Under the pieces are notes generated by a model that was given only the letters and a program-made list of their open reading frames with translations, did no database searches and was not told the origin of the DNA. Positions 3,001 to 25,359 of a stretch of DNA of 26,386 nucleotides are shown in pieces (position 1 is the stretch's first letter; the number at the start of each line of letters is the position of its first letter). Origin of the DNA: Folioceros fuciformis (Eukaryota); NCBI GenBank assembly GCA_049999805.1, contig JBNGIO010005925.1:99673-126058 (forward strand), in the 5' to 3' direction. The position numbers and the translations under genes were made by a program.

Positions 3001-6000
3001 TGCTTCAAGCTGAGACCATTGCTAATGTGCTAACCAGATGCGGTAACGAACAACTCAACACCAAATCTAAAACAATGACCTTGTCCTGCAAGGTTCGAAA
3101 AATGTGTACCAAGGTACAAGTCCCGAATCTGTAAACGCGTGTGGCTTACTTGATCTGCTTGCAGCATCCTCTTGACGCACTCACTATTCAAAAACCTATC
3201 CGCAAGGTCCATTGTCCGAGCTTCATCTGCTAGATTTGCTGCAGTAAGGGGATCACCTGCATGCTTCAATATCCTTCCCTGAAAGATGGAAACAGTTCAG
3301 TACCCAACCCCACCTGGAGCTTCAATAGAGGCCTACCTTTCACTGCAATTAGGCATTTGAAGGAAACGACTGAAGAGGACATTGGAACTTTACTTTGACA
3401 AGATACAGGTCAATAGCCGTGGGAGTATGTGCAAGGGCTGTGTCAATATTTTCCAAAGCTTTGCTATGCAGCCGCCTTTTGTCATAATGCTGCAAATCAC
3501 CATCCCTTTGGACATTAACAAGCTGGATCGCAAACAATAAACCTAGAGAATACAGGAAAGAAAAGAACTGCCTCCACTTCATCCACACCTGGGCAATGAG
3601 AAACAAGGTCCACATAAGAGTTGATGGAGGCTCCTTGTCAGTGCTGTAGATCAACCCAGCCATCAGGAAACAGCACGTCCAAACCGATTCTGGTCCATGT
3701 CCCCAGGACTACATGAACATAGCTCAACCACAAATACCTGGAGGGAAAGCACCCTGTGCTCTGTAGTGCAGACTCCACTCCCAGAAAGACACGTTCCATG
3801 ATATCTGCCTGTACTGAGCGTACAGTTGGGATAATCAAACTATTGGGGCAGAGGGCATAGAACAGCTGCTTAAGCAACAAAACCGAGTTCTCACCTTTCC
3901 AGGATGATGATACAGAGGTCGCAGATCAGAAAAAAGGGACGGGACACCCTGTGACCACAGAAGTTCAAATGAGCATACGAACAAAGCTCTAAAGTACACA
4001 AGAAAGAACACCAGAGAGCTCCATTGTGGAGAAACTTCAACACCAGCTCCAGTTTCAACAACGATCTAGTGGAGGGCAGCTGATGAAGGAGAGTCGAGAA
4101 AATCCACCTTTGCAAGAAAAGGCCTGACATACGTCTCTAGAGCTCTCTCGAAAGCCTCACCCTCCAAAAAGTCAAAAGGTATGCGCTGAAGACAAGAGAA
4201 AAGATTTCCAGCACAACCAACCAACCTGTCATTAAGGGCATGCCTTAGATAGGTAAAGAGATGCCGATCGGCACCTAAATGATCAATAGGACCACAACTA
4301 ATACTTCAACGTTGAGTCATTCGTGGTGTCAAAAGTATGCAAAATTGAGCAGAGGGACTTTGTACCTTTGCAGCTGCAGAGTGCGGATATTTTGTACGAA
4401 GTCCATCATAGAGCACAACAAGCTTTTCCACCTGTTCAGTGGTATAGCCTTGTCCATTTTGTGGCCACAATCCCAGGCATTTCTGCAGTCCTTCATAGTA
4501 GCTGCCACCACATACAGCTGATTTCAGGGCACAAATCTATGACAGTTACAGCTATCCACAGTAGTAACAAGCAGCAGCTTTGCACTTGCCTATAGTTGTC
4601 CGGGTTAACAGTGAGGAGCTGTTTGTAAGCATCTTCTGCCTCCTGCAGACGCTTTGTTTGTAAAAGTAAGCTTGCACGATGTTCGCGCAGACCTAACTTG
4701 TCAACCTGCCACATGGAAGGCATTTGTTAGATCACAAGAGAAGCAGAAACAGTGGGTATGAGACAGGACATCGAGAAGGACGGTGTAGGAGAGAGAGAGA
4801 GATACGTTAGTAAACCAAATTGGAGAAGACACTAAGCCTACCAAATGAGGTCAGCTTACAGAACCATACAATTTTGATATCCTTTCTCGAAAGCTCTTCG
4901 AGCGCTCTTTCTGGAGCGCCTGCTTCCTCGAGCAAAGAGGCCTGCACAGGTCATGAGCAAAAGGTACTTGAAGACAGACGGCACAAGTTACGGAGACGGA
5001 TGGACGGAGACGGATGGGGAGAGGAGGTACGACGATTCGGGCAACACACCTTGTAGAGCAACATCTCACTGTGCTCATAACGCTCATTGTCTGGCGGGAA
5101 GTCTTCCTCCAATGTGCCTTCATATGCTTCGAGGATTTGAACAGCCATACCAGGACTGTGGCAAAACATCATGTAGTGATCAGTGACCCGCCATATATTT
5201 CCAGCGAACGTACAAGACGAACATATCTGTCAAGACGTGCAAGAAGGGGAGGGGGGAGCTGAGACAAAGCAGGCAACCAAGTAATACTCACTCAAAGTTC
5301 ATATGGTGCGAAATTGCAAACCCAATCCAATTGTTCCGGTGGCTAGGCTTTATAGTCAAGAGCTGCCTGCGCGTCTCAACAAAGCCTGCCAAATCTCGCA
5401 TTTGTGCCTGCGGCACACCACAGTGTCAAGCACATCCAGGAGCGTCATCTCAGATTTGACCTGGAGCCGGACACATTATTCACCTGCAGGAGTGACAGGT
5501 CCCGAAGAATCTGAATGTTTTCTGGGTCAATCCGCAGCGCATTCCTGTAGCATTTGATAGCCTCCCGGTACTCACGGTCCGATCGATAGAGCAGCCCGTA
5601 GACGTGCCAACAGACATGGCTCTTGAGGTCATTCTGGCAGGACAGAGGTGTGGCGTCAACACCCGCGGGGCAAGCGAACACAGATGCATTCAAGCTGCCT
5701 TGACTCACCTTGAGCCCTTTCCGAACGAGCTCATACGCCTCAGCCTTGCGCTCCATGCAGTTGAGGGTGAGTCCCTTCATCGCCAAAGTCTCTGCGACAA
5801 GCAGCGTGGCACCCGCACGGAGGACGTTGGATTGAGCGTTGCAACCGGGCAGCGCAGCGCAGCACGGCAGAACGGTGGGATTGGAAGATGCCTACCTCCA
5901 TGCTCGGGAAATTTCTTCAAAACCTGGTCCGACGCCTTGAGTCCCTTCTTGTACTGCTTGGTCTCGTAGGATCGCTGCAAGAGCGGAGGGTGGGAATCAG

Positions 6001-8385: not shown

Positions 8386-10043
8386 ATGACCTCTTTGCTG
8401 CCTGCAGAGATGACACATCTCATGTTGGGGCTTGGGGCTCGCATGGTTCCCCGGACAGTCTCCTCATCCTGCGTCTCCTCCTCTCTGTCTGCTGTTGGTT
8501 CCAGCTTTGGTGTCGCTCCGCATAGCGTCCAACCACCTGCCAGGGCTTGGGCTGTGAGAGCAAGCATCGCGAGGGAGTCTTCTGTCAGCAGCTCCGGCAC
8601 CGCCGGAAACATGTGAGCTTCCTGTTGCTGTTCTTGAGAGGATAATACTGGGGGTTGTCTTCGCATTTCGACACTATCTCACTGTGATTCCGTCGTTCTC
8701 TTGTTGTTATCTTGCAGGTCTCTCACCCACATTCCGAACGAGAACCTTCATGTCTCTACCCCGACGTGGTGGCTGGAGAGCAGGTTCCACTTCAGGTGAG
8801 ATGCTGTTTGCCGGCATCAGATCCTTTGTTTTGTTTCTCGCTCGGTAATGTGTTTCCCAACCTGAAAGATATCTGCTGGGTGGGTGGCTGCAGCTTTGCA
8901 GAGTACTACAATCCCAAGAACCTGGACTTTGGAGTGTTACGTGTTCTGAACGATGATCTGGTGAAGGTGAGTCTTGCTTGCCCAATCATTTCCTGTCGGT
9001 CAGGCGTCCACTACGAATGACTCGCTGATCAGACTGCCCGTCTATGGATTAGCCCCGAGCTGGATTTGGGACTCATCCTCATCGAGATGCGGAAATATTT
9101 ACTTACGTCGTGGATGGAAAGCTCACCCACAAAGACAGGTAGGCTCTCTGGTGTGCTTGTGTGCGGATGAGGACGGCACTGTTCATGACTGCACTTTACT
9201 GTACACGTAGCTCTGCGGTTGGCTTTGCAGTATGGGGACGGCGGAAACGCTGGGACGAGGAGCGGTTCAGTACATGAGTGCCGGCCGTGGTGTTACCCAC
9301 TCAGAGATGAACGACTCGGACGAATCGTCAGTGTGGACATCCCCCTGTTTCCTTCTGCTTTAAGTGAGGACCCTTCTTGTTACGATCGTGATTCATTCAT
9401 TATGCTCTGACATGAGGCTCCCGCTTCAGGTTGAGGTTCCTGCAGATCTGGATAAAACCTGATCAAAAAGGCTACCCGCCGAACTACGGCTCCAGGACTT
9501 TCAGGTACGCAAAAGCCGGTCATACGCCTTCCACAGGCCTCCTGCCTGACTCGAGGACTCCGACGTCTCACTTCCTGCCTGTCAATGCAGCAAGAGTGAG
9601 AGATATAACAAGCTCCAACACGTGGTCACAAGCTACGAGAGGTATGGACGAAAGGAAGACACCCACGAAGGTGTGATCCCCGTCCACCAGGACGTGAACA
9701 TCTACGTGTCAGAAGCCGATGCAGGCCTGGAGCAAGACTTTGTACTGAGCAAAACACGGCAGGCATACCTGGTGTGCATCGAAGGTTCCCTGGCAGTGAA
9801 CGAAAGCACGAAACTCGGTGCTCGTGACGCTCTCGAGGCACGCCCTCCTTCCTTCCCAGTGTGCTGAACTTGCATTTGCCTGATCACTCGTGCAAAGCTT
9901 TCTGAAAACTCTGCCGTGCTCCTCCCCTCCCTGTGCTGCTGCAGATCCGAGCTGAGAAAACTGCAGAGCTGCCCTTGAAGCTGGTGGCATACGCAAACCT
10001 TGGAGCCCACTTCATGTTGATCGAGATGGCCCTGTCCCCTTGA
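8386..10043 (+). CDS. Pirin-like bicupin of the bacterial YhhW/quercetinase type, with putative plastid transit peptide (8 exons)
   Basis: Exons: ~8386-8612, 8718-8795, 8894-8966, 9053-9138, 9231-9326, 9430-9504, 9591-9837, 9945-10043. They give WWLESRFHFSFAEYY...FGVLRVLNDD...GFGTHPHRDAEIFTYV...VQYMSAGRGVTHSEMN...FLQIWIKP...VHQDVNIYV. The metal-ligand motifs HxH and HxE are intact. The start ATG is uncertain (8386, 8410, 8422, 8443, or the split ATG at 8611). Confidence 0.9.
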
Positions 10044-11327: not shown

Positions 11328-13076
11328 ATGCCGGCTGGAGTGTTAAAGCACATCATGGGCACCGCAGGGTCCAGCGGGTTCGGGTCCAGGTCCACGGCTG
11401 AGCAGGTCTCGGAGGGCGTCTCGTTGCAGGACCGCACTGCGATTGTCACAGGTGGGCTTTTGGCGGATGTGGAAGCAGTGGGGCGTCTTTCGTGTCTCAT
11501 TTCGCTTATCTGTGTGGGGTGGGAGAATTGCAGGAGCTACGGCTGGTATCGGCGTGGAGACGGCACGCGTGCTGGCTCTGAGAGGAGCTACTGTCGTCGT
11601 TGCGGCTCGGAATCTTGCCAAGGCGGAGGGTGTGAAAGCCGAGATAGTGAAGAAGAATCCCAACGCCAAGGTGGAGGTTAGAGAATTGGATCTTGGCTCG
11701 TTTGCGTCTGTAAGGAAGTTCGCTGCTGCGTTCAAGGCAGAAAACCGGCCTTTGAATTTGCTCGTGTATGTCTCTCGCCACCTTTGCTTCGCTGTCTTTA
11801 TGTGACCAGGGTGGTTTTGGTAACCTCTCTCTTGCTCCTCCTGTCTTGTGTCGCCTGACTTTTGTGGTACTGCTTCCTGTGTGAAGCAACAACGCAGGAT
11901 ACGCGACATCTGAGTTCCGGCTGACTGAAAATGGCTATGAATCCGTCTTTGCGACTAACCACTTAGGTCAGCGGCCTTTCCCCGTTTCGAGGTCAAGACC
12001 AGCGTGAGTGGCAACTGACCTATGTTTTGCTGCTTAGGTCATTTTCTTCTCACCGATCTTCTGCTGGACAACCTGGTGGCCACTGCAAAGGACACGGGAG
12101 TGGAGGGGAGGATTGTGATTGTTGCATCCGATGCGCATGGAAACTTCAGGAACAGCAGAATACCCCTTAGTGACATCAATAACCCCAATAGGTGAGGGAA
12201 GGAAGGAAGGAAGGATATGCTTTCTCAATCTTTATTCAGCCCTACCGGGTCCTGCGATTCTGTTTCTTCGTAGTGACCCGGAGGTCCTTCCTCAAGATTT
12301 TGTTTGTACTCTTCTCTTATGCTGTCATGGTTGTTGAAACGCCAGGTTCGAACCAATGAACGCATATGCTCAATCCAAGGTTGCAAACATTCTACATGGC
12401 AAGGAGCTAGCTCGTCGCCTGAAGGTGTGTTTTTCTTCAGAAGTCGAGCTTCAGAAGTCACAAATGCAGCAAGTGCATATTGTGAACCCTCTCATGCTGG
12501 CGTCGTGGTTTAAAGATGCCAATGTGGCGGTTGGTTTTTCTTCTGAATGCAGGAGCAAGGAGCAAATGTGACAGTTAACAGCCTCCATCCGGGGTACATA
12601 GCGACCAACATCATGGACGAAATCTTCTCACCAGCTGCCAAAGGTAATGGGAAATGACGTGATTTCTCGTCTGGTTGTCTGACAGTGGGGTGACGGGGAA
12701 CACCCTTGGGTTGTGTTTAGCTAACCGATATGCTCCTCCCGTCCGTGGCGATTGCAGCTGCTTTCCAGATTGCAGGAGCAGCTATGATGAAGTCAGTGAA
12801 ACAGGTACACTTCAGGGTTCCACCTGAGCCGGTTTTGTCCTCTGCTGGTTCAAGATACTAGGCAGTCGAGCACTGCAGACTTGCGAATTGAGACGTTCGT
12901 GATTTGTGCAGGGGGCTGCTACAACTGTCTACGTCGCAACATCCCCCTCTCTTCGAGGAGTGTCGGGCAAGTATTTTGATAATTGCAATGAATCGGACAC
13001 TGCTCCAGGAGTGACGAGGGACTCGGGAGCAGCTGCTGAATTATGGGAATTCAGTAAGAAGGTTACCAAAGAATAA
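11328..13076 (+). CDS. Short-chain dehydrogenase/reductase, TIC32/retinol-dehydrogenase-like (8 exons)
   Basis: Motifs include [15 protein letters not shown], the Rossmann motif IVTGATAGIG, NNAG, FATNHLGHFLLT, catalytic YAQSK, NSLHPG and [10 protein letters not shown]...VSGKYF...LWEFS. TAA is at 13074-13076, and all introns are GT-AG. Confidence 0.93.
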
Positions 13077-13724
13077 GTGTACGCCCTTCTGGGTTTTCGC
13101 ATTCTGTATCCGTTCCCAGAGATCATGGTCCACTCTTTTCCATATGAGTACATTCTTGTATGGACCCTGGCTACAGATGGGCGATATCTCTTGCGCAGCT
13201 GCCAGAAACCAAGGAGTTTTTAGTACAGAAAGTAAATGGCCCTCCCTTGTGTCGAAGCCCATAGAGAAACCTGCATTTTAGGGTCACATGTAAGGTGGCC
13301 TCTGGTTTCCGACAATCCTGTCTCGCCATGGATGAATCAGACTTTGTTCCGGCGGCCTGGGCACGGCACGTAGTACGGGAGAGAAAGCTCATGTTGGAAA
13401 GAAGAATTTTCTGGTCGCTTACTGCAGTTTGAACAGATTATTTTCGATTATAAATAATATAAAGAATATTACTATATATAGTAATAGTTCCCCGGATCCG
13501 TGGAAGCAGAGCAGGACCAACACGGGGGCTCCAAGTAGCTTGTCTCAATCTGCAAGGAGGACAGGTAATTAGCCCCCTTCGAAACAGCCTTCATCTTTGG
13601 ACTGGATTTCTTGTCATCATCCTACACTCCACCAAGATTTCGTGGGAGTCACTTAATGACTCTAAACTAAAGGAGACTCTCACAGGCATGCTCTCTTACT
13701 TAGTTCACACATAGTTTACATGGA

Positions 13725-13799
13725 GGCATGCATTGGCAAGCATGAAGTGTGCGCATGGAGGTATGCATGCTTGCATGCCTGCCCATGCATGCAAGCATG
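13725..13799. repeat. GCATG-rich (RY-like) tract with 13-bp inverted repeat
   Basis: Multiple GCATG/CATGCA copies. CATGCTTGCATGC (13766-13778) pairs with GCATGCAAGCATG (13787-13799). Confidence 0.6.
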
Positions 13800-14170
13800 A
13801 CATCACCCATTCAAGCTAAGCAGCGGTAGAGAGATCCATGCGCAAGGCATTCAATGAGGGACAAGTTGTTTTAGGAGGGCTCCAGCTTTGCCTCCAAAAT
13901 GTGTTGAACACCCTTTGATATGGGGAGTGGAAGGAATTGTTTTGCCATGACTTGTTTTGTTTCCCATAGGATAAGATTCTTAAGAGGGAGGATAGCGGAC
14001 TTTCCACGAAAGAGACAAAGGGAATGCAGAAGAATGCAGAAGGGGCCCAGTCCAGCCACCCTGCTTTGGGGAGCTCTGCTGCGAGTGCTGTGCTGTGCTG
14101 TGGTAGTGTGACAGATTCAATGTACTTGCCCCATACATGGCGGGCTGGACGAAGTGTGTGGAAGAGCTGT

Positions 14171-14264
14171 GGCAAAAGGCAAAAGGCAAAAGGAAAAGGA
14201 TGTAGACTGAAGCGAAGGAAACAAAACCAAATTGGCATGGCATGGCATGGCTTGGCTTGGCTTG
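14171..14264 (+). repeat. Short tandem repeats (GGCAAAA)3 and (TGGCA)3(TGGCT)3
   Basis: Read directly at 14171-14191 and ~14233-14264. Confidence 0.8.
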
Positions 14265-14559
14265 TAAGCCCAACAACGTCTGGCTCATGCGCTCCCGACC
14301 CGACATGGTTCCGGATAAACTGAATGTGGTTCCGACGCAGGTGCATGAACCATACACGCTGGCACGGCCTTCGCCAGCCTAGCCCACCCTCGTGCTTGCT
14401 TGGCCTCCGGCGGGGCCCGGGTATCCGACGTGGGGCCGCCTCGTGTTGCCACCTCACCAGGCGGGGTCTTCACGATCAGGTGCATTGAACCTTGCCCTAC
14501 CCTTCCCGTAGGGCTGCTCGCCGGCCTTCGCCAACGGACCAGCCCTGCCCAAGGGACCC

Positions 14560-14681
14560 AGCCCAAGAATTCCCTTATGCTATAAGAGCCTGCCCTCAAA
14601 AACCTAACCTTCAAATTTCCCTTACACTCCAGCGTCCGCTCTGCTTCCCTCCCTTCTCCTCCTCCTCCTCCTCCTCCTCCT
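14560..14681 (+). promoter_or_regulatory. Putative core promoter (site II-like, TATA, pyrimidine patch, (TCC)n) upstream of the transposase-derived gene
   Basis: AGCCCA at ~14560, TATAAGA at 14581-14587, a CT-rich patch, and (TCC)8 at 14657-14680. Confidence 0.4.
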
Positions 14682-15102
14682 GGTTGGGCCGGCTCCGGTC
14701 GCCCTACTGATCAAGCGTTGTGCTGCGATTCCGCGGAAGCCTACGCGCTGCCAGAATTCTTGCTGCCGGGCTGCCGCGCATTCGGGGGATGTGCGGCGAG
14801 CTCGGGGACGCTGTTGGACGCGGGGCTTGAGCGGCAGGTGGTGCGCGCTTGGCTGGCTGCTGCTGTGGATCTCTGCAGAAGAGACCCACCATGCGCTGCC
14901 CGCTGCCGTGACCTGGTGTTTCAAACGGTGGACACCGTGGTGGTCAGGATGAGGGAGCGGAGGAAGGTGTAGAGTGGGAGAGGAAGGAAGGGAGCATGCA
15001 GCTGCGTGGCCTGGCCTGGGCACACCTAGCTTTCCAAGGGCCACGGGGCTGGAAGATGCTTGTGGTGAGGAGGGGAGGGAGGCTCCGTGATCGCATTCCG
15101 AG

Positions 15103-15202
15103 NNNNNNNNNNNNNNNNNNNNNNNNNNNNNNNNNNNNNNNNNNNNNNNNNNNNNNNNNNNNNNNNNNNNNNNNNNNNNNNNNNNNNNNNNNNNNNNNNN
15201 NN
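15103..15202. other. Assembly gap (100 N)
   Basis: Run of N. The true length is unknown. Confidence 0.99.
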
Positions 15203-16907
15203 CCAGCATGCGGAAATGCAGATGGAGAGCTACGAGCATGTGGTGCACGGGCACTCGGACGTGCAAGCGTACAAGGACCACCTCCACCATGAGCATGACC
15301 ACCGGACGGTGGCCTTGGATGCCTATGAGGAGCGGCAAGACGTTCTTGACGCAGAGAGAGACCGGGACGTGGATATCGAGTCCCCGCAGCAGATCGAGAG
15401 ACCGGGCGTGGATATCACGTTTCACACCATGGACAGGCCCCGCGAGACGGAGCTCACTTTTCAGCAGCTGCTGGAGAGGCCCGATATTTCCTTCGCGCCA
15501 CCGCAGCAGCTTCTGGAGCAGCAGTTCTGGCCGCCTATCTCCCTCACCCTGCACACCAATGGAGCGGATTGTACGCAACAGCAGTCCATCAAGCCCAACA
15601 AGAGAGTGCGGCAGACGGGGAAGACGCAGACTCATTACCAGAAGGAGAGGCAAAAGAGTCTAGAGATGGTGCTCAAGTTGCCCATCAAGACGAGACAACT
15701 TTTCTGCGTCTCCGAGTTCTACAAGTACATGGCCTCCAGTCGCCCCAAGTCCCCATCCTTGAAGGTGCCTATCTGCTTGCAACTGTTACTTCGGTTTTCG
15801 TGTGCCGTTGCTCTGCGGATGGCTTGCATCGGCAGTCATGTGCCGCCTCTTCACACTTTAATTTTTTTCCCTGCCATGGATCGCAAAACCTTTTCCCCAA
15901 CGTGCAGCATTGATGCTGCCCTGTTTCTGTCTGAAGGTTGTGGAGGATTCTGCGAACCTTGGAGGAAGTCAGCTTGAGGGAAAGGCATTGTGCTGGCTCT
16001 CTTATCTAATTGCTTAGATGATAGAATCTTGGGTGGAAGATGTGTAGTACGTGTAGAGGACTTGCATCTGTGTCGTCTTCATCTTGGATGATGCACTTGT
16101 TTCTCTGTTGTGATCGGACGTTTGGTGAGTCTGGATTGCTTGTCTGCTCGTCCGACATTGAATGCTCGCTCCCTTTCTACTTTCTTGCATGCACTTGCCA
16201 TTTTTTTCCTTTGTTTTTTGGAGAATATTTGGACATTTCACTATGCCGGGCCTGAAATACTGGTGTAGCTGGGATGCTTGGTGTAGGTCACAGATGCTTA
16301 TGAGAAGGCAGGTGAATCTGTGGGTGTGACTGTGAAAACAGCGCGCAAGTGGGTTGAGGACTGGGAAAGTCGCGGAGACGGAACTTTCTCCGACTCTAGG
16401 CAGGTATGTCTCGGCTGCCTTGTGATTGCTGCTATTCAACGTTTGATGGTGGAGCTACCTCCTTGGATCTTAACATGGTAAACGTCTTCTTTCAGGGCAA
16501 GCATGCTAAGGTTGAGTGGATTCTTCAACCAGAACATCTGCAAGCCCGCGCTCGGCAATGGATAGAACACAACTGCCCGAAGAAGGGTGACCCTCCACGC
16601 AAGGAGTCGATCATCAATCAGTTCCGAGATTTTTGCAACACTGACCTTCTGTTAGAAGTACAGGTGAGTGGTGGTTGAGTTTCCTGCACGGGAATCGGAT
16701 GGGAAGCGCCTACCTCTTACGGAAGGGGTTCTCATCCAATGTTCTTGTTTGTGTCAGCAGGCCCCTAAGCAGACAGAGGGTGGGATGGACATGGCGTTGC
16801 CCTCTCATCGAAAAATTTCCAGTGAGACCGCCAGGTCCTGGCTTCACAGACTTGGATTTCATAATTTTAAGGATTTCAGAGGTTCCTCTGTAAAATCTCA
16901 TCAGTAG
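15203..16907 (+). CDS. Transposase-derived DNA-binding protein: low-complexity N-terminus plus two IS630/Tc1/mariner-like HTH domains, no DDE domain (5' end in or near the gap)
   Basis: Exons <15203-15764, 16287-16403, 16496-16663 and 16758/16761-16907 are joined by phase-0 GT-AG introns with no internal stops. They give ...PSLK|VTDAYEKAGESVGVTVKTARKWVEDWESRGDGTFSDSRQ|GKHAKVEWIL...ARQWIEHNCPKKG...QFRDFCNTDLL...|...KISSETARSWLHRLGF...HQ*. Confidence 0.75.
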
Positions 16908-17930
16908 CCTGTCTACATTCATTGTTCCTTCCTTTATTTTTAGACTGTAAAGATACGTTCTGAGATACCCATGCGATGGTCGTGACCCGGAGAGTTGGAG
17001 CTCATAAATGGCATTGTTTACGTTCTCCGGTGAGGGAATAGATGCCACTATACAAATGATATAGCGTCCACTTGGGGATCGTTGTTTGCGAAGAGTGACC
17101 CAGTTGTAGACCCCTGTTACGGCAAGGTATGTTGAAACAAAAGTAATCCATAAGACAAGAAAATACATTAGACGAAGGTACGGTAGGTTTGGACTGTAGC
17201 ACAAGCAAGTGAGAACATTCGAGGCACGTTCTTTCATGTCATATGCCTGAGATTATGTCTACAGTGTCCATAGCAGCGACCATCGAACGGTATCTGAAAA
17301 GCCCATCCATCCCTACCTAGAGACAACACTGTATTACGGTAAACATCCACGTCTGCCATTGATCCAGCAAATGTGGGAGCATGGTGGATGTGCTTCAGTT
17401 GTCTGAAGAAGAGTAGCAGCGGTCCTTCAGCCGGCTGACAGACGAGTAGCTCTCAAACAACAGCCGTACATTCACCTGCTCCACACCTGCCAGAACTATG
17501 ACGAACATGTTTCGTTGTCCACCCCAACTGCTTGAGAAGAGAACCAAGCTTTTGGTTGGGTTCTGATCTTCAAAACACAGTGCACCTTCTGCCACGCGCT
17601 CGCTCCTGGAGGTTACAAGGAAAGGAAGGTTATGATGGGGAACACTCGCCAAGCCTGGCATACACGAATTCAACCAATCCAAAGAAGGAGAAGAAATATG
17701 TATTACGAAGTAAACGAGGTTGTCAAGGGGATCATTACCTGTCAAGCTTGGTTTGCCTCTAACCCTAACTGGAGAAAGGTCCCTCCATCGAAGTTGCGGT
17801 GCCAAGGGAGACCTGAGTGTTACAACAATTAGGGACCAGAAAACTCGGAGCTCAGAGCAGAATCTCATGTGTCAACTACCTGGACGTGGGTCCTGAGGAA
17901 ATATGCAAATTACATTAGGGCACGCTGCAA

Positions 17931-18641
17931 CTATGCTTGCACTGCAATCGCGTTACAAGGGCTCAGCTCATCAATGCTGTCCCACTCTTGCCAAATGTCC
18001 GGCACAGCTTCCCGCACATTGTGCAAGCTTGCCACAGCATAGCAAGCCCCTTCCGACCGCTCGAAGCTGCCCACCAAAACAGTGTTAAGGCCTGCAAACC
18101 TCGCAGCAGCAATGTTTCGAACGCTGTCGTCTAGAAAGAGAGTTGTAGCAGCATCCACCTGCGCCATCTCCACGGCCCGTCGGAACGCCTCCTGTGCAGG
18201 CTTGCAGACTATGCCACTATCCTCCGCCTGCTGGATGGATTCCAAAGAGATTACGCCCTCAAAGCAGTCCTCCAGCCCCAGCCTGCGCAAAACCTCGAAG
18301 GCATGCACTCTGTCCGCGTTGGTAAAGATCAGCTTGCGCTGCGGCATACTGAGCAGCAGCCTCCGCAGCACCGGATCCGGATGCAACGCATCGTAGGGAA
18401 GAGCCCCGTGCACGAAAGCGTGGAATTCATCCAAATCCACTCGGAACCCTTCTGCGATCAGCCCTGCCAGTGTCGTGCCGTGCTTATGGTACAAACGCAG
18501 GCAATCATCCGGCACTGTGGAAGCTTCCATTCCCAGCCTCTCCACCATGAACTGCTGGATGCGCTGCCTGCACACGGCAGCGAGGCCCGAGCTGAGGGGG
18601 TACAACGTATCATCCAGATCGAAGAGCAGACAATCATATCT
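17931..18641 (-). CDS. HAD-superfamily hydrolase, pyrimidine 5'-nucleotidase (SDT1/PHM8-like); start lies in the gap
   Basis: Uninterrupted ORF with motif I CLLFDLDDTLYP, HGTTLAGL, motif II IFTNAD, motif III CKP and motif IV LFLDDSVRNI. TAG is at 17931-17933. Confidence 0.92.
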   Translation of the reverse strand, partial: RYDCLLFDLDDTLYPLSSGLAAVCRQRIQQFMVERLGMEASTVPDDCLRLYHKHGTTLAGLIAEGFRVDLDEFHAFVHGALPYDALHPDPVLRRLLLSMPQRKLIFTNADRVHAFEVLRRLGLEDCFEGVISLESIQQAEDSGIVCKPAQEAFRRAVEMAQVDAATTLFLDDSVRNIAAARFAGLNTVLVGSFERSEGACYAVASLHNVREAVPDIWQEWDSIDELSPCNAIAVQA

Positions 18642-18741
18642 NNNNNNNNNNNNNNNNNNNNNNNNNNNNNNNNNNNNNNNNNNNNNNNNNNNNNNNNNNN
18701 NNNNNNNNNNNNNNNNNNNNNNNNNNNNNNNNNNNNNNNNN
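18642..18741. other. Assembly gap (100 N)
   Basis: Run of N. Confidence 0.99.
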
Positions 18742-19049
18742 GACACCGAATAGCATGCTGCAGTGATCTGCCGACTGATGCCGGAAGAGACTCCTGACAA
18801 GCGGAACCAAGACCTCCAACACTCTGAGCAACGTTTAAACGAACGGGCCTTGCCTATAATTAGGGAACAATGCGACACGACGTGCACGACCTGCAATGAA
18901 CTAACTTGCCTCTTGTCACAGCGATATTTCTGTCCCGTGGATCACAAATCTCAAGGGATCCGGAAGCTCAGCTGCGAAGATGAACGGCCCACGAACCTGC
19001 GAACTAACACTAACTATGAGGTCGAAATCGACAGGTGGTAGGTCATGAT

Positions 19050-19980
19050 TAGTATTGTGGTTTTACATCTTACCTATTTTACATTACCAGCATAAATTAC
19101 GGTATAAATTACCGAACCCCTTGATAAGGGTCAGTAACTGTGTTTTTTATTACACTTAAATTATAAAAAAATAGAAGATTATACCTGTAAAGGGTTGTAA
19201 AATTACATGGCATGTGTAAATTTACACACTTTCTGTAATTTATAGTGTATACCTAATATAACTTTAAAATATGTAAATATATGTAAAAAAAGTAAATATA
19301 TATAATATTTACTTATAATATAATATAATAAAGATCCAAGAAAATTAACTTATAAGCTCAAAATGGAGACACCTTCTTCATTCTTTTCACTCTCTTCCCG
19401 ATCTCTAGATTCTATTTCTTCATTCTCCTCCATTTCACCATGGCAGATGTCTTCTATACCACTTTTTACAACCACATTGGTTCAAGACTTTCTAAGTACA
19501 CGCCATCCAATCCTCCCAATCTCTTGCTTCAATAGTAGCATTATGTCCTTTTAACACTCTACTATTATAGTAAACATAGACAAGCATATCAATCAACCCT
19601 GTCCACCATGGTTCTAGCTCTATTACTACGCTAAACATGTTTCTTTCTCTATTATTACGCTAAACATGTTTCTTTCCCCTTCTATTGCAATTGGAGGAAT
19701 GCTCAACAACTTTTTTGCTACATCTCCAAGTTGCGGACATTCCTCTCCACATGCTTCCCAGCACTCCACATTGTTATATATCAACCCTTCTTGAAAATGT
19801 AGTTCTTTGTCAATACATAACTTACCAAGTCTAAGGCAATAACGATTGAACTGCAACAAAACACAATGAGCTTCACTAGTATTAGATGCCAATGCCTTTA
19901 TGATATGCTCACCTTTCAACCTATCAGCTACAAAAAAATGTCAGGCAATCTATCAACAAGAGAAATGCCAATCATGACTC
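19050..19980 (-). mobile_element. Degenerate, 5'-truncated hAT DNA transposon
   Basis: The minus-strand translation has the hAT C-terminal dimerisation motif CWEACGEECPQLGDVAKKLLSIPPIAIEGERNMFS and, in a shifted frame, DMLVYVYYNSRVL, then an acidic tail. The AT-rich 3' region carries AATTAC/GTAAAT subterminal repeats and ends at a candidate TIR TAGTATTGTGG at 19050. No partner TIR was seen. Confidence 0.8.
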
Positions 19981-20543
19981 ATAATCCTGGTAGCTTGCGA
20001 TAAGTAGGCCATTTAGGATTAGTGGTGGGCACGGTGCTGTCCTATCAAGCACCTACCCCAGTCGAATTCCAGCAAACGTTCCCCTCGACAGTTTGGGAAG
20101 GAATCCCTACTCGTTTCTAAGGCAAATGCACTAGAGAAAAGCATGTCGTTTTCTATCAAACTCCTGTGATGAGAACGAGTGGGGTTCCTGAGCTATGGGC
20201 TGATCGATTGTTGTTCAGGATGACGATATTCTTGTGATGAGTCCCGTGCCCGCTTGACATCTTTTATACCTACTCCTACCCAATCTCCCATGCTAAGGAG
20301 GTGGACCCTTTTGCATGGGCAAGACAGTAGAAGTGGGCAAACATGCAACACAGACCGTGTTGCCAATTTGGACATTAAGCTTGATCTTAGTGTTTTTGGC
20401 TTACAATAAGTTTGGTTGCTAATCCCGCAGGTTATGTACGATGTGGGTGTGAGATGTACAAATTTTAATTTGTTTGAATGTGAATTTTTCAAAGCAAGTA
20501 GGTGCATGTAATCCACATGGCTCCTTAAAGACTAAAAAAGCAT

Positions 20544-20625
20544 TTATGCCCCATAATCTAATGTTCATGTACCTTTCAAGAATGTTATGCCCCATAATCA
20601 AATGTTCATATACCTTTAAAGAATC
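20544..20625 (+). repeat. 41-bp tandem duplication
   Basis: TTATGCCCCATAATCTAATGTTCATGTACCTTTCAAGAATG is followed by TTATGCCCCATAATCAAATGTTCATATACCTTTAAAGAATC. Confidence 0.85.
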
Positions 20626-21414
20626 TACTCGTTAGAGCAGACATTGTTGTCTTTGCTAGTGCCATTTTGTTCTAATCCACTTTGGTTTTTGCTATGTCTT
20701 CACTATCCAAAGGTTGACACAAGTTGTTGATTAGTTACTAGCCTTTTTTTCTATGGTGTCTCTAATTTTTGTCTTCATCCTCCTAATACTCAAAGATACC
20801 ACTTGAGCTTTGAGACAAATTTTCTCAATTATAGATATATCTCCTTCACTCAAAGTTGGATTGCACCTCCTTATGGAGGGTTGAAGGAGAGCTCTTCCAA
20901 TGCATTTAGTGAAAACCTTAAATTCATGTATGATTCGCATTAGGGACTAGCAATGCGTATTGGGAAGTTAGCATGAATGTCAATAAAATTTCGAGCACAC
21001 AGGAAAGCAGCCAAGGTCACTATACAACTCCCAAACAACAATCCAACTCCTAATCTCCCTCTTTGAAAAATGTTTTTCAAGAATATTCTAGAAAATGCAC
21101 TATAACTATTGCATGTACTGTACTGTAACGAGGATAACAATGATTGGTACACTCGGTTTTGAAATAAAACTCTACCCTGAAAAGGTGAATTTGGTGACGC
21201 AACGAAAAATATTCCATGGACTTCACATTCGAATAGAAATCTCGGGTGAGCTCTTCAGTCGTGGTGTGTCTCGTCGGAGGTCCTGTCGGGCGAGCTCCTG
21301 CGGAGCAATGGCTGTCTGGAGGCTGGCTGGTGTTCTCGGAAGAGCTGGCGCTGGGTTGAGTTTAACGACCCTGCTGTTGGAAGACCAGAAAGGCGTCAGA
21401 GCTCTTGTGATAGC

Positions 21415-24400
21415 ATGGCTGCCTGGAGACAGATCTCGCAGCGAGGTCGTCACCAGGAGCTATTTGGGCGACAAGGTTTTCGGGACTCGGCAGCTTGGCA
21501 ACTTCATAACAGCCTCCGTTCATCTGGTGCCCCGCAGGTCGAGGTGGATTGTCACACCTCCCGTTGGCACTGGAGCTTGCCGGATGATGCTGCGCCTGGC
21601 AGGTGTGAAGGATACGAAGGGAGCGTAGGCGCTGGCACCGTGAGCGAGCTATGTTGTCAGGGGCATCTCTATGAGGCTGTTGAGGCTTTGGGAGTTTTGG
21701 TGCAGAGGGGGGATTTCGTTTCCAAGTCTCTTTTTTACACTGTGCTCAAGAGATGTACGGTGGACAAGAACCTTGTTCTCGGTCGTCGGGTCCATGCTTT
21801 TACTGTTAAAATGGGGCACCAGTCAGACACGTTCCTGTGCAACCACATTCTGCGAATGTACACTTCTCATGGCAGGTTGCAAGACGCCATGGATGTGCTT
21901 GCTCTGGTTGGCAAGCCAGATGCGTACACTTGGTCTGCCATTATCTCTGCGCATGTTAAAGAAGGAGAGGGCGAAGGGGCCATAGAGCTATATCGGCTGA
22001 TGCGTAGGTCAAGTGTGAGGCCGGATGGCCATGTTTTCGTGGCGGCTCTTCAGGCCTGTACAAGGGGAGCAGACTTGACTACTGGGCGGCATCTGCATGC
22101 AGATGTGTTGGCTAGTGGGGTAGAGCATGACTTGTTTGTTTGCAATTGCTTGGTCGACATGTATGGAAGGTGTGGCAGCTTGGAAGACGCCCGACGAGTG
22201 TTTGATGGCCTGGGTCTGAAAGACGTGGTGACGTGGAATTCCATGATATCTGCGTATTCCCACCATGGAATGGGGCATGAAGCATTCCTTTTGTATAGTG
22301 CCATGCAGAACGATGGTGCCGCCGTACCCGATTGTGTGACATTTGTGTGCCTCTTGCAGGCATGTGCAAGTGTGGGCGATTTGGGTTTGGTGACGGGCAG
22401 GCAGCTTCATGCAGAGATTAGAGAAGCAGGTCATCAAGCTGATGCATTTGTTGCAAACAGTTTGGTATCCATGTATGCTAAGTGTGGCAGCTTGGAGGAC
22501 GCACGCGAATTATTCCACGGTCTCAGGAAGAAAGATGTGGTGACATGGAATGCAATGATAGCAGGGTGTTCCAAGCAGGGCATGGGCCAGGAAGCCCTTC
22601 GTCTTTACAACGAAGCGCAAGAATGTGGCGTGGCTGCGCCTGATCGGGTGACATTTCTGTGCCTCCTGCAAGCATGTGCAAATGTTGGCAACTCGGCTCT
22701 GGAGAAGGGGAAACAGCTGCATGCCCAGGTTGAAGAACGGGCATATGGAGCTGATGTGTTTGTTGCCAACAGTTTGGTTAACATGTATGCAAAGTGTGGC
22801 AGCTTGGAAGATGCTAAGAGATTGTTTGACGGACTTGTTCAAAGAGATGCAGTGACATGGAATGCCATGATAGCAGGTTTTTCTCGCCAGGGCATGGGCC
22901 AGGAAGCTCTTTACCTCTACAGTGAAATGCAAGAACAGGGCTTGGCTGAACCTGATAATGTGACATTTCTTTGCCTCCTTCAAGCATGTGCAAGTGTGGG
23001 CACCACTGCTTTGGAGCTGGGGAGACGATTTCACGAGCAGATTAGAGAACAAGAGTACCATGATAATTCATCTGTTGCCAGCAGTTTGGTGAACATGTAC
23101 GCAAAGTGTGGCAGCGTGGAAGATGCACGGAGAGTTTTTGAGGGACTTGGTCCCAAAAATGTGGTAACGTGGACGGCTCTCATTTCAGGATATTCTCAGC
23201 ATGGAATGGTCCAGGAGATGCATGATTTGTACAACGCTATGCTACACGAAGGCATTGTCGTGGTGGATTCCGTGTCATTTGTGTGCCTCCTGCAGGCATG
23301 TTCACGTATCGGTAGTCCAGGTCTCGAGATGGGCAAGCAGCTTCATGCTCAAATTAGGGATCGAGGACTTCAAGCTGATGTCTCTGTAGCCAGCGCTTTG
23401 CTGAACATGTATGCTAAGTGTGGCAGCTTAGAAGACGCAGAGGAAGTGTTCAACGGTTTTGGTGAGAAAAATGCCATGATGTGCAATGTTATGATAGCAG
23501 GGTATTGCCAGGAGGGCATGGGCCAGCAAGCCCTTAGTCTTTACATTGCAATGCAAGAAGAAGATGTGGCTTTACTTGATGCCATGACGTTTGTGTGCCT
23601 CCTGCAGGCGTGTGCTGTTGTGGGCAACTCCTCTCTGGAAATAGGAGTTCGGCTGCATATGCAAATCAGAGAACGAGGGTATCAAGCTGATGTGTTTGTA
23701 TCGAGCAGTTTGGTGAACATGTATGCCAAGTGTGGCAGTGTGGAAAACGCACAGAAAGTGTTTGAAGAACTTGGTCAGAAAAATGTGGTAACATATAATG
23801 CTATGATAGCAGGCTTTGTCCACGAGGGTATGGTCCAGGAAGCCCTTCGTGTCTACTCTGCTATGCTAGAAGAAGGAATTAGTTATCCGGACTCCGTCAC
23901 ATTCGTGTGCCTCTTGCAGGCAATTGCAAGTTTGGGCAGCCCGGCTTTGGAGATGGGGAAGTCTCTTCATGCGGAAATCAGAAAAAGAGGAGATGAGGCT
24001 GACGTTTTTGTGGCAGGCAGTTTGATAAGCATGTATACAAAGTGTGGCAAATTGGAGGACGCACGCACAATATTTGATGGGCTTGGTAAGAAGGATGTAG
24101 GTACATGGAATGCCATGATAGCTGGGTTTTCCCAGCAGGGTATGGGCCATGAAGCCCTTGGTCTTTACGGTGCTATGCTAGATGAAGGCTTGGCTGGACC
24201 TGATTCTGTGACATTTGCATGCCTGTTGCAAGCCTGTGCAAGTGTAGGCAGGCCAGCATTGGAGGCGGGCAAGAAGCTTCACGCACGGATCAGAGCACAA
24301 GGACATGAAGGTGATGAATTTGTAGTTAGCAGTTTGGTGAACATGTATGCAAAGTGTGGCAGCTTGGAGGACTCTCGGAGAGTGTTTGACACACTGAGTA

Positions 24401-25359
24401 AGAAAGACGCAGTGACCTGGACAGCTATGATAGGGGGGTATTCACAGCAGGGTATGGGCCAAGAGGCCCTTATTCTCTTCCATGTTATGCAAGAGGAAGG
24501 CATTGCAGTAGCAGATCACGTGACATTTGTATGCCTACTGCGAGCATGTGCAAATTTGGCAGCTTTGCATCTGGGAAGGCAGTTACATGCTCAGATTGAA
24601 GAACAGTGGCTGCAAACTGATTTATCTGTCGCAGGCAGTTTGATAAACATGTACGCAAAGTCTGGAAGTATAATGGAGGCACAACAGGTCTTTGATGCCT
24701 TGCCGGAAAGAGATGTTATTTCCTGGAGTGCATTGATTGCAGGCTACACCTGTCAAGGAGACAGTGACATGGTCTTTGAGTTGGTACAAAGAATGATAGA
24801 GGATGGCATACAGCCAGTCAACGTCACATTTCTCAGTGTACTAACAGTGTGCAGTCATGCGGGTCTTGTCAACAAGGGGAGAGTGTACTTTGATGTTATG
24901 AGCAGGCACTATTACATCTCTCCCAGTGTCGAGCACTACACTTGCATGGTGGATCTCCTGGGCCGTGCAGGGTTACTGGATGATGCCCTGGGTCTAGTAA
25001 GTACGATGGCTGTAGTCCCCAACGCTGCAGTCTGGCACACACTGATGGGTGCTTGTCGTATATGGAGCAATGTCGAGGTGGGTCGCCTTGCTTTTGATGA
25101 AGCCGTGAAGTTAGATAAGCGAGATGCTTCAGCACATGTACTTATGTCCAACATATACAGCGGTGCTCAGATGTGGGAGCAGGCACAGGAGATTCAGGCC
25201 AGGAGATTAAGGAACAGGGCGTGGAAGCTACCGGGTCAGAGCTGGTGGACTGACATGGACGGACTTGTGCATAGTTTTTGGGTTGGCCGTGACCAGCATC
25301 TATCGACTGACAACGACACCGTGGAGCATTCTAGAAAGGTGTCCGCCATCACCTCTTAA
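21415..25359 (+). CDS. PLS-class pentatricopeptide repeat protein (organellar RNA-editing factor) with E1-E2 and a WW-type PG box; DYW domain truncated
   Basis: Single 1314-aa ORF with ~32 P/L/S motifs (VVTWNAMIAG / VTFVCLLQAC / LVNMYAKCGSLEDA), P2-L2-S2 (CSHAGLV, EHYTCMVDLLGRAG), E1 and E2. It ends PGQSWWTDMDGLVHSFWVG, with no intact HxE/CxxC. Confidence 0.96.
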   Translation: MAAWRQISQRGRHQELFGRQGFRDSAAWQLHNSLRSSGAPQVEVDCHTSRWHWSLPDDAAPGRCEGYEGSVGAGTVSELCCQGHLYEAVEALGVLVQRGDFVSKSLFYTVLKRCTVDKNLVLGRRVHAFTVKMGHQSDTFLCNHILRMYTSHGRLQDAMDVLALVGKPDAYTWSAIISAHVKEGEGEGAIELYRLMRRSSVRPDGHVFVAALQACTRGADLTTGRHLHADVLASGVEHDLFVCNCLVDMYGRCGSLEDARRVFDGLGLKDVVTWNSMISAYSHHGMGHEAFLLYSAMQNDGAAVPDCVTFVCLLQACASVGDLGLVTGRQLHAEIREAGHQADAFVANSLVSMYAKCGSLEDARELFHGLRKKDVVTWNAMIAGCSKQGMGQEALRLYNEAQECGVAAPDRVTFLCLLQACANVGNSALEKGKQLHAQVEERAYGADVFVANSLVNMYAKCGSLEDAKRLFDGLVQRDAVTWNAMIAGFSRQGMGQEALYLYSEMQEQGLAEPDNVTFLCLLQACASVGTTALELGRRFHEQIREQEYHDNSSVASSLVNMYAKCGSVEDARRVFEGLGPKNVVTWTALISGYSQHGMVQEMHDLYNAMLHEGIVVVDSVSFVCLLQACSRIGSPGLEMGKQLHAQIRDRGLQADVSVASALLNMYAKCGSLEDAEEVFNGFGEKNAMMCNVMIAGYCQEGMGQQALSLYIAMQEEDVALLDAMTFVCLLQACAVVGNSSLEIGVRLHMQIRERGYQADVFVSSSLVNMYAKCGSVENAQKVFEELGQKNVVTYNAMIAGFVHEGMVQEALRVYSAMLEEGISYPDSVTFVCLLQAIASLGSPALEMGKSLHAEIRKRGDEADVFVAGSLISMYTKCGKLEDARTIFDGLGKKDVGTWNAMIAGFSQQGMGHEALGLYGAMLDEGLAGPDSVTFACLLQACASVGRPALEAGKKLHARIRAQGHEGDEFVVSSLVNMYAKCGSLEDSRRVFDTLSKKDAVTWTAMIGGYSQQGMGQEALILFHVMQEEGIAVADHVTFVCLLRACANLAALHLGRQLHAQIEEQWLQTDLSVAGSLINMYAKSGSIMEAQQVFDALPERDVISWSALIAGYTCQGDSDMVFELVQRMIEDGIQPVNVTFLSVLTVCSHAGLVNKGRVYFDVMSRHYYISPSVEHYTCMVDLLGRAGLLDDALGLVSTMAVVPNAAVWHTLMGACRIWSNVEVGRLAFDEAVKLDKRDASAHVLMSNIYSGAQMWEQAQEIQARRLRNRAWKLPGQSWWTDMDGLVHSFWVGRDQHLSTDNDTVEHSRKVSAITS

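Follow-up and report, generated by a model that had tools for sequence, protein, structure and literature searches.

A low-copy gene of Folioceros fuciformis, conserved in mosses and lycophytes, with a putative bipartite helix-turn-helix domain of plausible transposase origin

The window analysed in the present study, a stretch of 26,386 nucleotides from Folioceros fuciformis (NCBI GenBank assembly GCA_049999805.1, contig JBNGIO010005925.1, positions 99,673 to 126,058 of the forward strand), carries a gene of four exons, readable from 15204 and closed by a stop codon at 16905-16907, whose product ends in a conserved helical domain. With moderate confidence, we read it as a nuclear host gene, low in copy number and characteristic of land plants without seeds, encoding a DNA-binding factor with a bipartite helix-turn-helix (HTH) domain that derives from a transposase of the IS630/Tc1/mariner type and is devoid of catalysis. 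It is a candidate regulator of early-diverging land plants, namely a strongly conserved HTH-pair gene that is present in mosses and lycophytes and for which the searches returned nothing from seed plants. A preliminary description of the locus had already proposed a domesticated DNA-binding gene of this transposase type, and in the following we state, where the results bear on it, which of its claims held.

The locus is made up as follows (slashes mark the splice junctions):

15103-15202, no strand: assembly gap of 100 N, which hides the 5' end of the gene and its promoter
15204-15764, forward strand: exon 1, of which 187 codons can be read, the ATGs at 15216 and 15222 being in frame; no Pfam or NCBIfam family
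15765-16286, forward strand: intron 1, 522 nt, AAG/GTGCCT...TGTAG/G; the relatives are continuous across the junction
16287-16403, forward strand: exon 2, 117 nt or 39 codons, with helices 2-3 of the first HTH
16404-16495, forward strand: intron 2, 92 nt, CAG/GTATGT...TTCAG/G, splitting the conserved linker SRQ/GKH
16496-16663, forward strand: exon 3, 56 codons, encoding the basic linker (GKH.K) and helices 1-2 of the second module
16664-16757, forward strand: intron 3, 94 nt, CAG/GTGAGT...GTCAG/C
16758-16904, forward strand: exon 4, followed by the stop TAG at 16905-16907, with a variable loop, the third helix of the second module and 15 more residues
16908-17930, no strand: spacer of about 1 kb from the stop to a convergent HAD gene, without catalytic relic

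All three splice junctions read in the window sequence are phase 0 and of GT-AG type; exon 4 has a NAGNAG acceptor, which allows a start at 16758 or at 16761. When the four annotated relatives introduced below were searched against the window by tblastn, they returned the pieces 15531-15755, 16287-16403, 16493-16663 and 16758/16791-16898, with E-values down to 7e-54. To judge from these alignments, the proposed exons are recovered far beyond chance and the four-exon gene model is real. The four exons with their phase-0 GT-AG introns, as first described, are accordingly borne out by the window sequence and the colinear relatives, and the 117-nt exon at 16287-16403 was recovered by the same tblastn. 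In exon 1, which is GC-rich, three frames of the forward strand and one of the reverse strand stay open. Because several other frames are open there too, the open frame alone is weak evidence, and it is the homology to the relatives that settles the reality of the exon 1 frame. Position 15203, with which the gene had been made to begin, is merely the first base after the 100-N gap, into which the 5' end of the gene extends. At the other end, the open reading frame (ORF) closes 15 residues past the RLGF motif, rather than the 14 counted earlier. For all external searches, single exons or the proteins of relatives served as queries, and the spliced product was joined by coordinates and aligned by script.

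In the product, a variable N-terminal region precedes the conserved domain, and the following parts can be told apart:

First ~140 codons of exon 1, forward strand: variable His/Gln/acidic N-terminal region, 21-26% identical to the relatives
15591-15614, forward strand: basic patch KPNKRVRQ; a basic, Gly-rich patch lies at the same position in the lycophyte and Sphagnum relatives
15633-15764, forward strand: start of the conserved C-terminal domain, its leading helices including the LKLP.K.R.LFCV.EFY block (invariant columns in the relatives, helices in the models)
16335-16364, forward strand: putative recognition helix KTARKWVEDW of the first HTH, in exon 2
16815-16859, forward strand: third helix of the second module, ISSETARSWLHRLGF, in exon 4

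The low-complexity part had been put at more than 180 residues and comes to about 140, since the conserved domain already takes up the last ~45 residues of exon 1. The basic patch is a possible nuclear localisation signal. Within the domain, the basic linker is invariant and reads Q-G-K-H-V-K in the relatives, and the two putative recognition helices are rich in basic and aromatic residues (Arg, Lys and Trp) that are conserved in the alignment of the relatives. The second module contains, before its last helix, an unusually long variable loop of ~20 residues.

The relatives came from two kinds of protein search. An exhaustive phmmer run with exon 3 against 1,835,955,588 representative proteins gave seven at E<=0.001, three of which are true relatives: P0001 (83 residues, 95% identity), P0002 (317 residues, 79%) and P0003 (388 residues, 70%). 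The other four (P0004-P0007) were rejected as relatives, being tandem-repeat proteins matched in 5-9 short stretches. A word-indexed search of longer proteins with exon 3 produced three candidates, none at E<=1. The same kind of search with P0003 gave four proteins at E<=1 among 69 candidates (213-679 residues), all of them hypothetical proteins, from Sphagnum magellanicum, Sphagnum troendelagicum, Selaginella moellendorffii and Diphasiastrum complanatum; that of S. troendelagicum is named 'Transposase' by one source. P0001 is 95% identical over exon 3, and therefore a close relative of the window's organism carries the gene, the record itself being an ORF-type fragment. It holds exon 3 only (three differences in 56 residues), and its unrelated flanks look like read-through into introns. 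At two of the three differing residues (E-Q-N-C and K-M-F-R contexts) P0001 agrees with both lycophyte proteins, and the third lies at a position that varies among the relatives.

Conservation is concentrated in the C-terminal part. The spliced product aligns with the four relatives colinearly across all three junctions, and its core is 71.6, 71.8, 65.9 and 67.1% identical to them over ~170 C-terminal residues, as against 21-26% in the N-terminus. Among the relatives themselves, identity is 82% between the two lycophytes and 63-65% between moss and lycophyte; the pairwise values thus follow taxonomy, which fits vertical descent. Every relative ends 16 to 43 residues past the RLGF motif, with no further domain and no DDE, so that the same truncated architecture with a conserved core recurs in distant species (two lycophytes and two Sphagnum species). 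Given colinear moss and lycophyte relatives with the same ending and no DDE, the alignments speak for an old, constrained host gene, by this comparison at least as old as the moss-lycophyte split. The gene therefore spans mosses and lycophytes and, contrary to what had been supposed, is not lineage-specific.

Its copy number is low, within the window as well as by the contigs per cluster and the three true clusters. The tblastn count of copies proposed in the preliminary description found a single copy in the window and no second one when the four relatives were the queries, and the 90% cluster of each relative is seen on one contig. In a literature search that left subscription journals and supplements outside, no paper was found on the family or on its three locus tags. 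Tc1-like elements are reported in moss (PMC4054914).

What links the domain to transposases are sequence profiles, protein look-alikes and folds. Exon 2 has sub-threshold matches to three Pfam families, HTH_23 (PF13384; E 0.0057, 16.9 bits where the gathering cut-off is 24.6), HTH_28 (E 0.039) and HTH_29 (E 0.066), and in NCBIfam to the IS630 profile (NF033545; E 0.051, 13 bits against a cut-off of 100) as well as an IS481 profile. The four relatives behave similarly: HTH_23 is matched by all four (best E 0.054; 10.8-13.8 bits), HTH_29 and LZ_Tnp_IS481 by two each, the IS630 profile by three (best E 0.022, 12-14 bits, again with the cut-off at 100) and IS481 by one. The IS630 transposase profile is the sole recurrent NCBIfam match (three of four relatives plus exon 2), and the match spans profile positions 14-73, that is, from the first HTH through the linker into the next helix. 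Language-model look-alikes of the P0002 core in the Atlas reach scores of 0.94-0.95 and have 185-199 features in common with it. Closest are two clusters of basidiomycete 'hypothetical' proteins and a 180-member rotifer cluster named 'Transposase (Fragment)', none with a Pfam family; one in which 12% of the members carry DDE_3 comes no higher than 0.82. An Atlas query with exon 3 alone was discarded, for it retrieved only phage hypothetical clusters with low recognition. A DDE core preceded by a G.Y.DGHE-type linker, as given for the family named in the preliminary description, would fit fungal and rotifer elements.

With regard to structure, two AlphaFold models (mean predicted local distance difference test, pLDDT, 60.7 and 60.3) have helix patterns that fit two three-helix modules. 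Compared by Foldseek with the PDB, both have TnsB chains as best matches, model 1 at E 0.44 and model 2 at ranks 1-5 and 7 with E 0.14-0.6. For model 2 the paired domains of Pax6 (6pax_A, E 0.75) and Pax5 (1k78_A, E 1.4) stand within the top ten; they are not among the matches listed for model 1. TetR, MarR and LysR regulators are found among fold matches of similar weakness. The AlphaFold-Foldseek comparison suggested at the outset thus ranks DNA-binding regions of a transposase, TnsB, best, and none of its matches is significant. Taken together, the support for the transposase link is weak but consistent, in that the recurrent IS630 profile, the 'Transposase (Fragment)' look-alikes and the TnsB and Pax fold matches all point the same way.

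Several results weigh against a transposase-derived, DNA-binding product. All library matches lie far below the curated cut-offs (HTH_23 at 11-17 bits versus 24.6, IS630 at 12-14 versus 100), and exons 1, 3 and 4, including the second module, match no family; the earlier statement that the motifs match the IS630/Tc1/mariner family is not confirmed, exon 2 alone giving matches, all below the cut-offs. The search over proteins of 213-679 residues brought up no DDE-bearing relative. Among those of 378-2000 residues, two of 8000 scored matched at E<=10, and both are the Sphagnum relatives, neither DDE-bearing. A family-profile scan of prokaryote genomes ended with 81 pattern matches and no confirmed relative, and tblastn of the conserved core against plasmids with six records at E 2-5, none a transposase. 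For direct comparison, the pCP301 copy and 50 of 80 loci (1029 bp without stop) were kept as a set of 51 IS630 transposases and reduced to 15 at <90% identity. Against these, hhalign gave the family a probability of 0.3-0.7%, and in a column-shuffle test the observed score was reached by 82 of 300 shuffles, which is chance level. The hhalign sub-alignments were set aside as evidence: three are colinear (first HTH helix, RAR.W.E..C and T.R.WL), each of them insignificant, and three others are not colinear. Searches of the PDB with sequence profiles yielded one chance match each (4nhx, E 0.87; 9z7q, E 1.1). Both AlphaFold models are of low confidence, and neither has a Foldseek match at E<=0.001, the template modelling (TM) scores being at most 0.28. 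Consequently, of the domesticated transposase first proposed, the DDE-less HTH gene kept by the host stands, on the colinear truncated relatives, and the descent from IS630/Tc1/mariner is unproven, the similarity being sub-threshold and at chance level.

None of the hallmarks of an IS630/Tc1/mariner transposase, which are a DDE/D core, terminal inverted repeats (TIRs) and multiple dispersed copies, was found in the window or, for copies, in the protein clusters. The 14 ORFs on both strands of 16871-17896 contain no transposase family, only one chance SSXT match (E 0.03). Searched against the window by tblastn, the 15 IS630 transposases reached E 0.08 at best and had no match in the locus or the 16908-17930 spacer. 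Over 13500-18000, inverted pairs amount to 10 short imperfect ones (14-24 nt, 79-94% complementarity), none convincing; a simple calculation puts the chance expectation for 4.5 kb at ~39 exact 9-mer inverted seeds. In this respect the earlier statement that neither catalytic relic nor TIRs lie downstream is confirmed. Two candidates were considered and rejected: the inverted pair 13553-13576 / 17727-17750 (24 nt, 79%), which brackets the gene and is imperfect and of a size expected by chance, and the string KEGYDGEH in the ORF at 17502-17759, whose likeness to the G.Y.DGHE linker is superficial, comes with no family match and was treated as chance.

These observations have to be weighed against other explanations of the locus. 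It might be a decayed or non-autonomous transposon fragment, or a pseudogene with a chance open frame, as the missing catalytic domain, the name 'Transposase' given to one relative by one source, and the GC-rich exon 1 with its several open frames would allow. Nevertheless, a core 66-72% identical to moss and lycophyte proteins, intact splice junctions and a shared end point hardly agree with decay, and neither do a single copy in the window with one contig per cluster, only three true representative clusters among 1.84 billion proteins, and an interval of 13500-18000 in which TIRs were not found. We regard this explanation as largely refuted and very improbable indeed. Alternatively, the conserved domain could serve as a helical adaptor that binds protein or RNA instead of DNA, its HTH-like helices being used for some other interaction, a suggestion with which the low model confidence, the lack of a significant structural match and the unusually long loop ahead of the second module's last helix are compatible. 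However, HTH_23-type matches occur in all four relatives, basic and aromatic residues are conserved in both putative recognition helices, the linker is basic, and the best fold matches are DNA-binding domains, so that an adaptor appears improbable to us.

The most serious competitor, which we think unlikely and yet the likeliest of the three, is an old plant HTH-domain family that was never carried by a transposon, with the likeness to transposases reflecting only the generic resemblance of three-helix modules. Sub-threshold matches throughout the transposase-related libraries, an IS630 comparison at chance level, protein searches without any DDE-bearing relative and equally weak fold matches to TetR, MarR and LysR regulators are all what such a family would give. 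It accounts less readily for the fact that the sole recurrent NCBIfam match is the IS630 profile, colinear from the first HTH into the linker, that the top Atlas clusters include a 'Transposase (Fragment)', and that TnsB and Pax bipartite domains lead the fold searches (Pax for model 2 only). A transposon origin of the domain is therefore plausible, and we keep to the reading of a host-retained bipartite DNA-binding factor.

On that reading, the gene product would work in the following way. The fast-evolving and probably disordered His/Gln/acidic N-terminal region would act as an effector or interaction region that recruits partners, and the short basic patch ahead of the HTH domain, as the candidate nuclear localisation signal, would direct the product to the nucleus, its presumed location. 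The constrained helical domain of ~170 residues would then comprise two three-helix, HTH-like modules joined by the conserved basic linker (GKH.K). The product is predicted to bind DNA sequence-specifically: the recognition helix of each module (K-T-A-R-K-W... and E-T-A-R-S-W-L...) would enter the major groove, and the linker would touch DNA between the modules as in paired-type bipartite domains. The most likely source of the domain is the N-terminal DNA-binding part of a transposase of the IS630/Tc1/mariner type, captured ahead of the moss-lycophyte split. Lacking a catalytic domain, the product cannot transpose. The role as an anti-transposon factor and the binding of TIR/MITE-derived sites that the preliminary description put forward are purely speculative.

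The rest of the window is plant-like and gene-dense. Besides the gene described above, the following features were recognized:

5445-5888, reverse strand: piece of a tetratricopeptide repeat (TPR) gene, exon-sized ORF, TPR repeats at E 3e-8
9550-9864, forward strand: pirin-like piece, exon-sized ORF, pirin/quercetinase C-terminal cupin at E 3e-11
11347-11802, forward strand: short-chain dehydrogenase/reductase (SDR; adh_short), by Pfam
17934-18641, reverse strand: haloacid dehalogenase (HAD) hydrolase, convergent, in the ORF 17931-18941, which beyond the gap has a match to Pfam Hydrolase (E 6.7e-15)
21250-25359, forward strand: pentatricopeptide repeat (PPR) ORF, uninterrupted, 1369 codons, with an E motif near its end

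The flanking SDR and HAD genes named in the preliminary description are upheld by these Pfam matches. A second 100-N gap (18642-18741) breaks the reading frame of the HAD hydrolase on the minus strand. The PPR ORF has a tandem periodicity of 312 bp (104 codons) over 22336-24471, with 6.8 copies and 69% matches, and the DYW family is not among the 18 families listed for it. Just upstream of the first gap, 14586-15100 is GC-rich; (CCT)10 occupies 14652-14681, both strands have long open frames, and no Pfam family is matched. The stretch may be promoter or 5' untranslated region, or the end of the SDR gene. At 13766-13799 there is a near-perfect palindrome of 16+16 nt made of CATGCA-type units, 94% complementary and with 2 nt between its arms. 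Between the HAD and PPR genes, 19000-20700 forms an AT-rich island (GC 0.34-0.40) with tandem repeats at 19607-19676 (period 29) and 20537-20624 (period 41). Scanned for Rfam families and for tRNAs, the window gave no match.

Regulators are known to have arisen from DNA-binding proteins of transposon origin, and the known plant examples come from Mutator, hAT and Harbinger elements and belong mostly to seed-plant families. Among the systems with which the present gene can be compared, the N-terminal bipartite domain of IS630/Tc1/mariner transposases (HTH_23/HTH_28/HTH_29 type; NF033545) has the same order of parts, namely an HTH, a short basic linker containing Gly, and a second HTH ending in a T..R.WL...G-type helix. 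The gene differs from these elements in having no DDE/D core, no TIRs and a low copy number, in a similarity that is not significant, and in the ~20-residue loop of its second module. The DNA-binding domains of the TnsB/MuA type likewise have two successive HTH domains, and TnsB is the best Foldseek match of both models; with E 0.14-0.6 and TM-scores of at most 0.27, however, no sequence relation to this prokaryotic family of RNase-H-fold transposases is shown. FHY3/FAR1, MUSTANG and DAYSLEEPER are Mutator- or hAT-derived, mostly seed-plant or angiosperm families that usually keep most of the transposase. They share with the present gene a transposon-derived DNA-binding part (of putative origin here) that became a conserved host gene, whereas the present gene keeps the HTH pair only and, apart from mosses and lycophytes, was found in no organism but that of the window.

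The product would work most like the paired-type bipartite HTH domains. For the Pax proteins, which are transcription factors of animals, descent from a transposase of the Tc1/mariner type is generally assumed, and the likeness lies in a catalysis-free bipartite HTH DNA-binding domain kept as a host gene, binding being predicted for the plant product. On the other hand, the fold matches to Pax are insignificant (E 0.75 and 1.4, TM-scores at most 0.28), the kingdom is another, no sequence similarity is seen, and neither homeodomain nor octapeptide is present. More tentatively, and with less than even confidence, we propose that a Tc1/IS630-type domain was captured in the land-plant ancestor more than 400 million years ago, was retained by mosses, lycophytes and the lineage of the window as a single-copy transcription factor of paired-like type, and in seed plants either disappeared or changed past recognition. 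Transposase ancestry, if confirmed, would date the domestication to the base of land plants and offer a tractable case for asking what the factor binds; and, if that ancient capture is true, the gene would be for plants what the Pax paired domain is for animals, and no regulator derived from IS630/Tc1 would have been described in plants before it.

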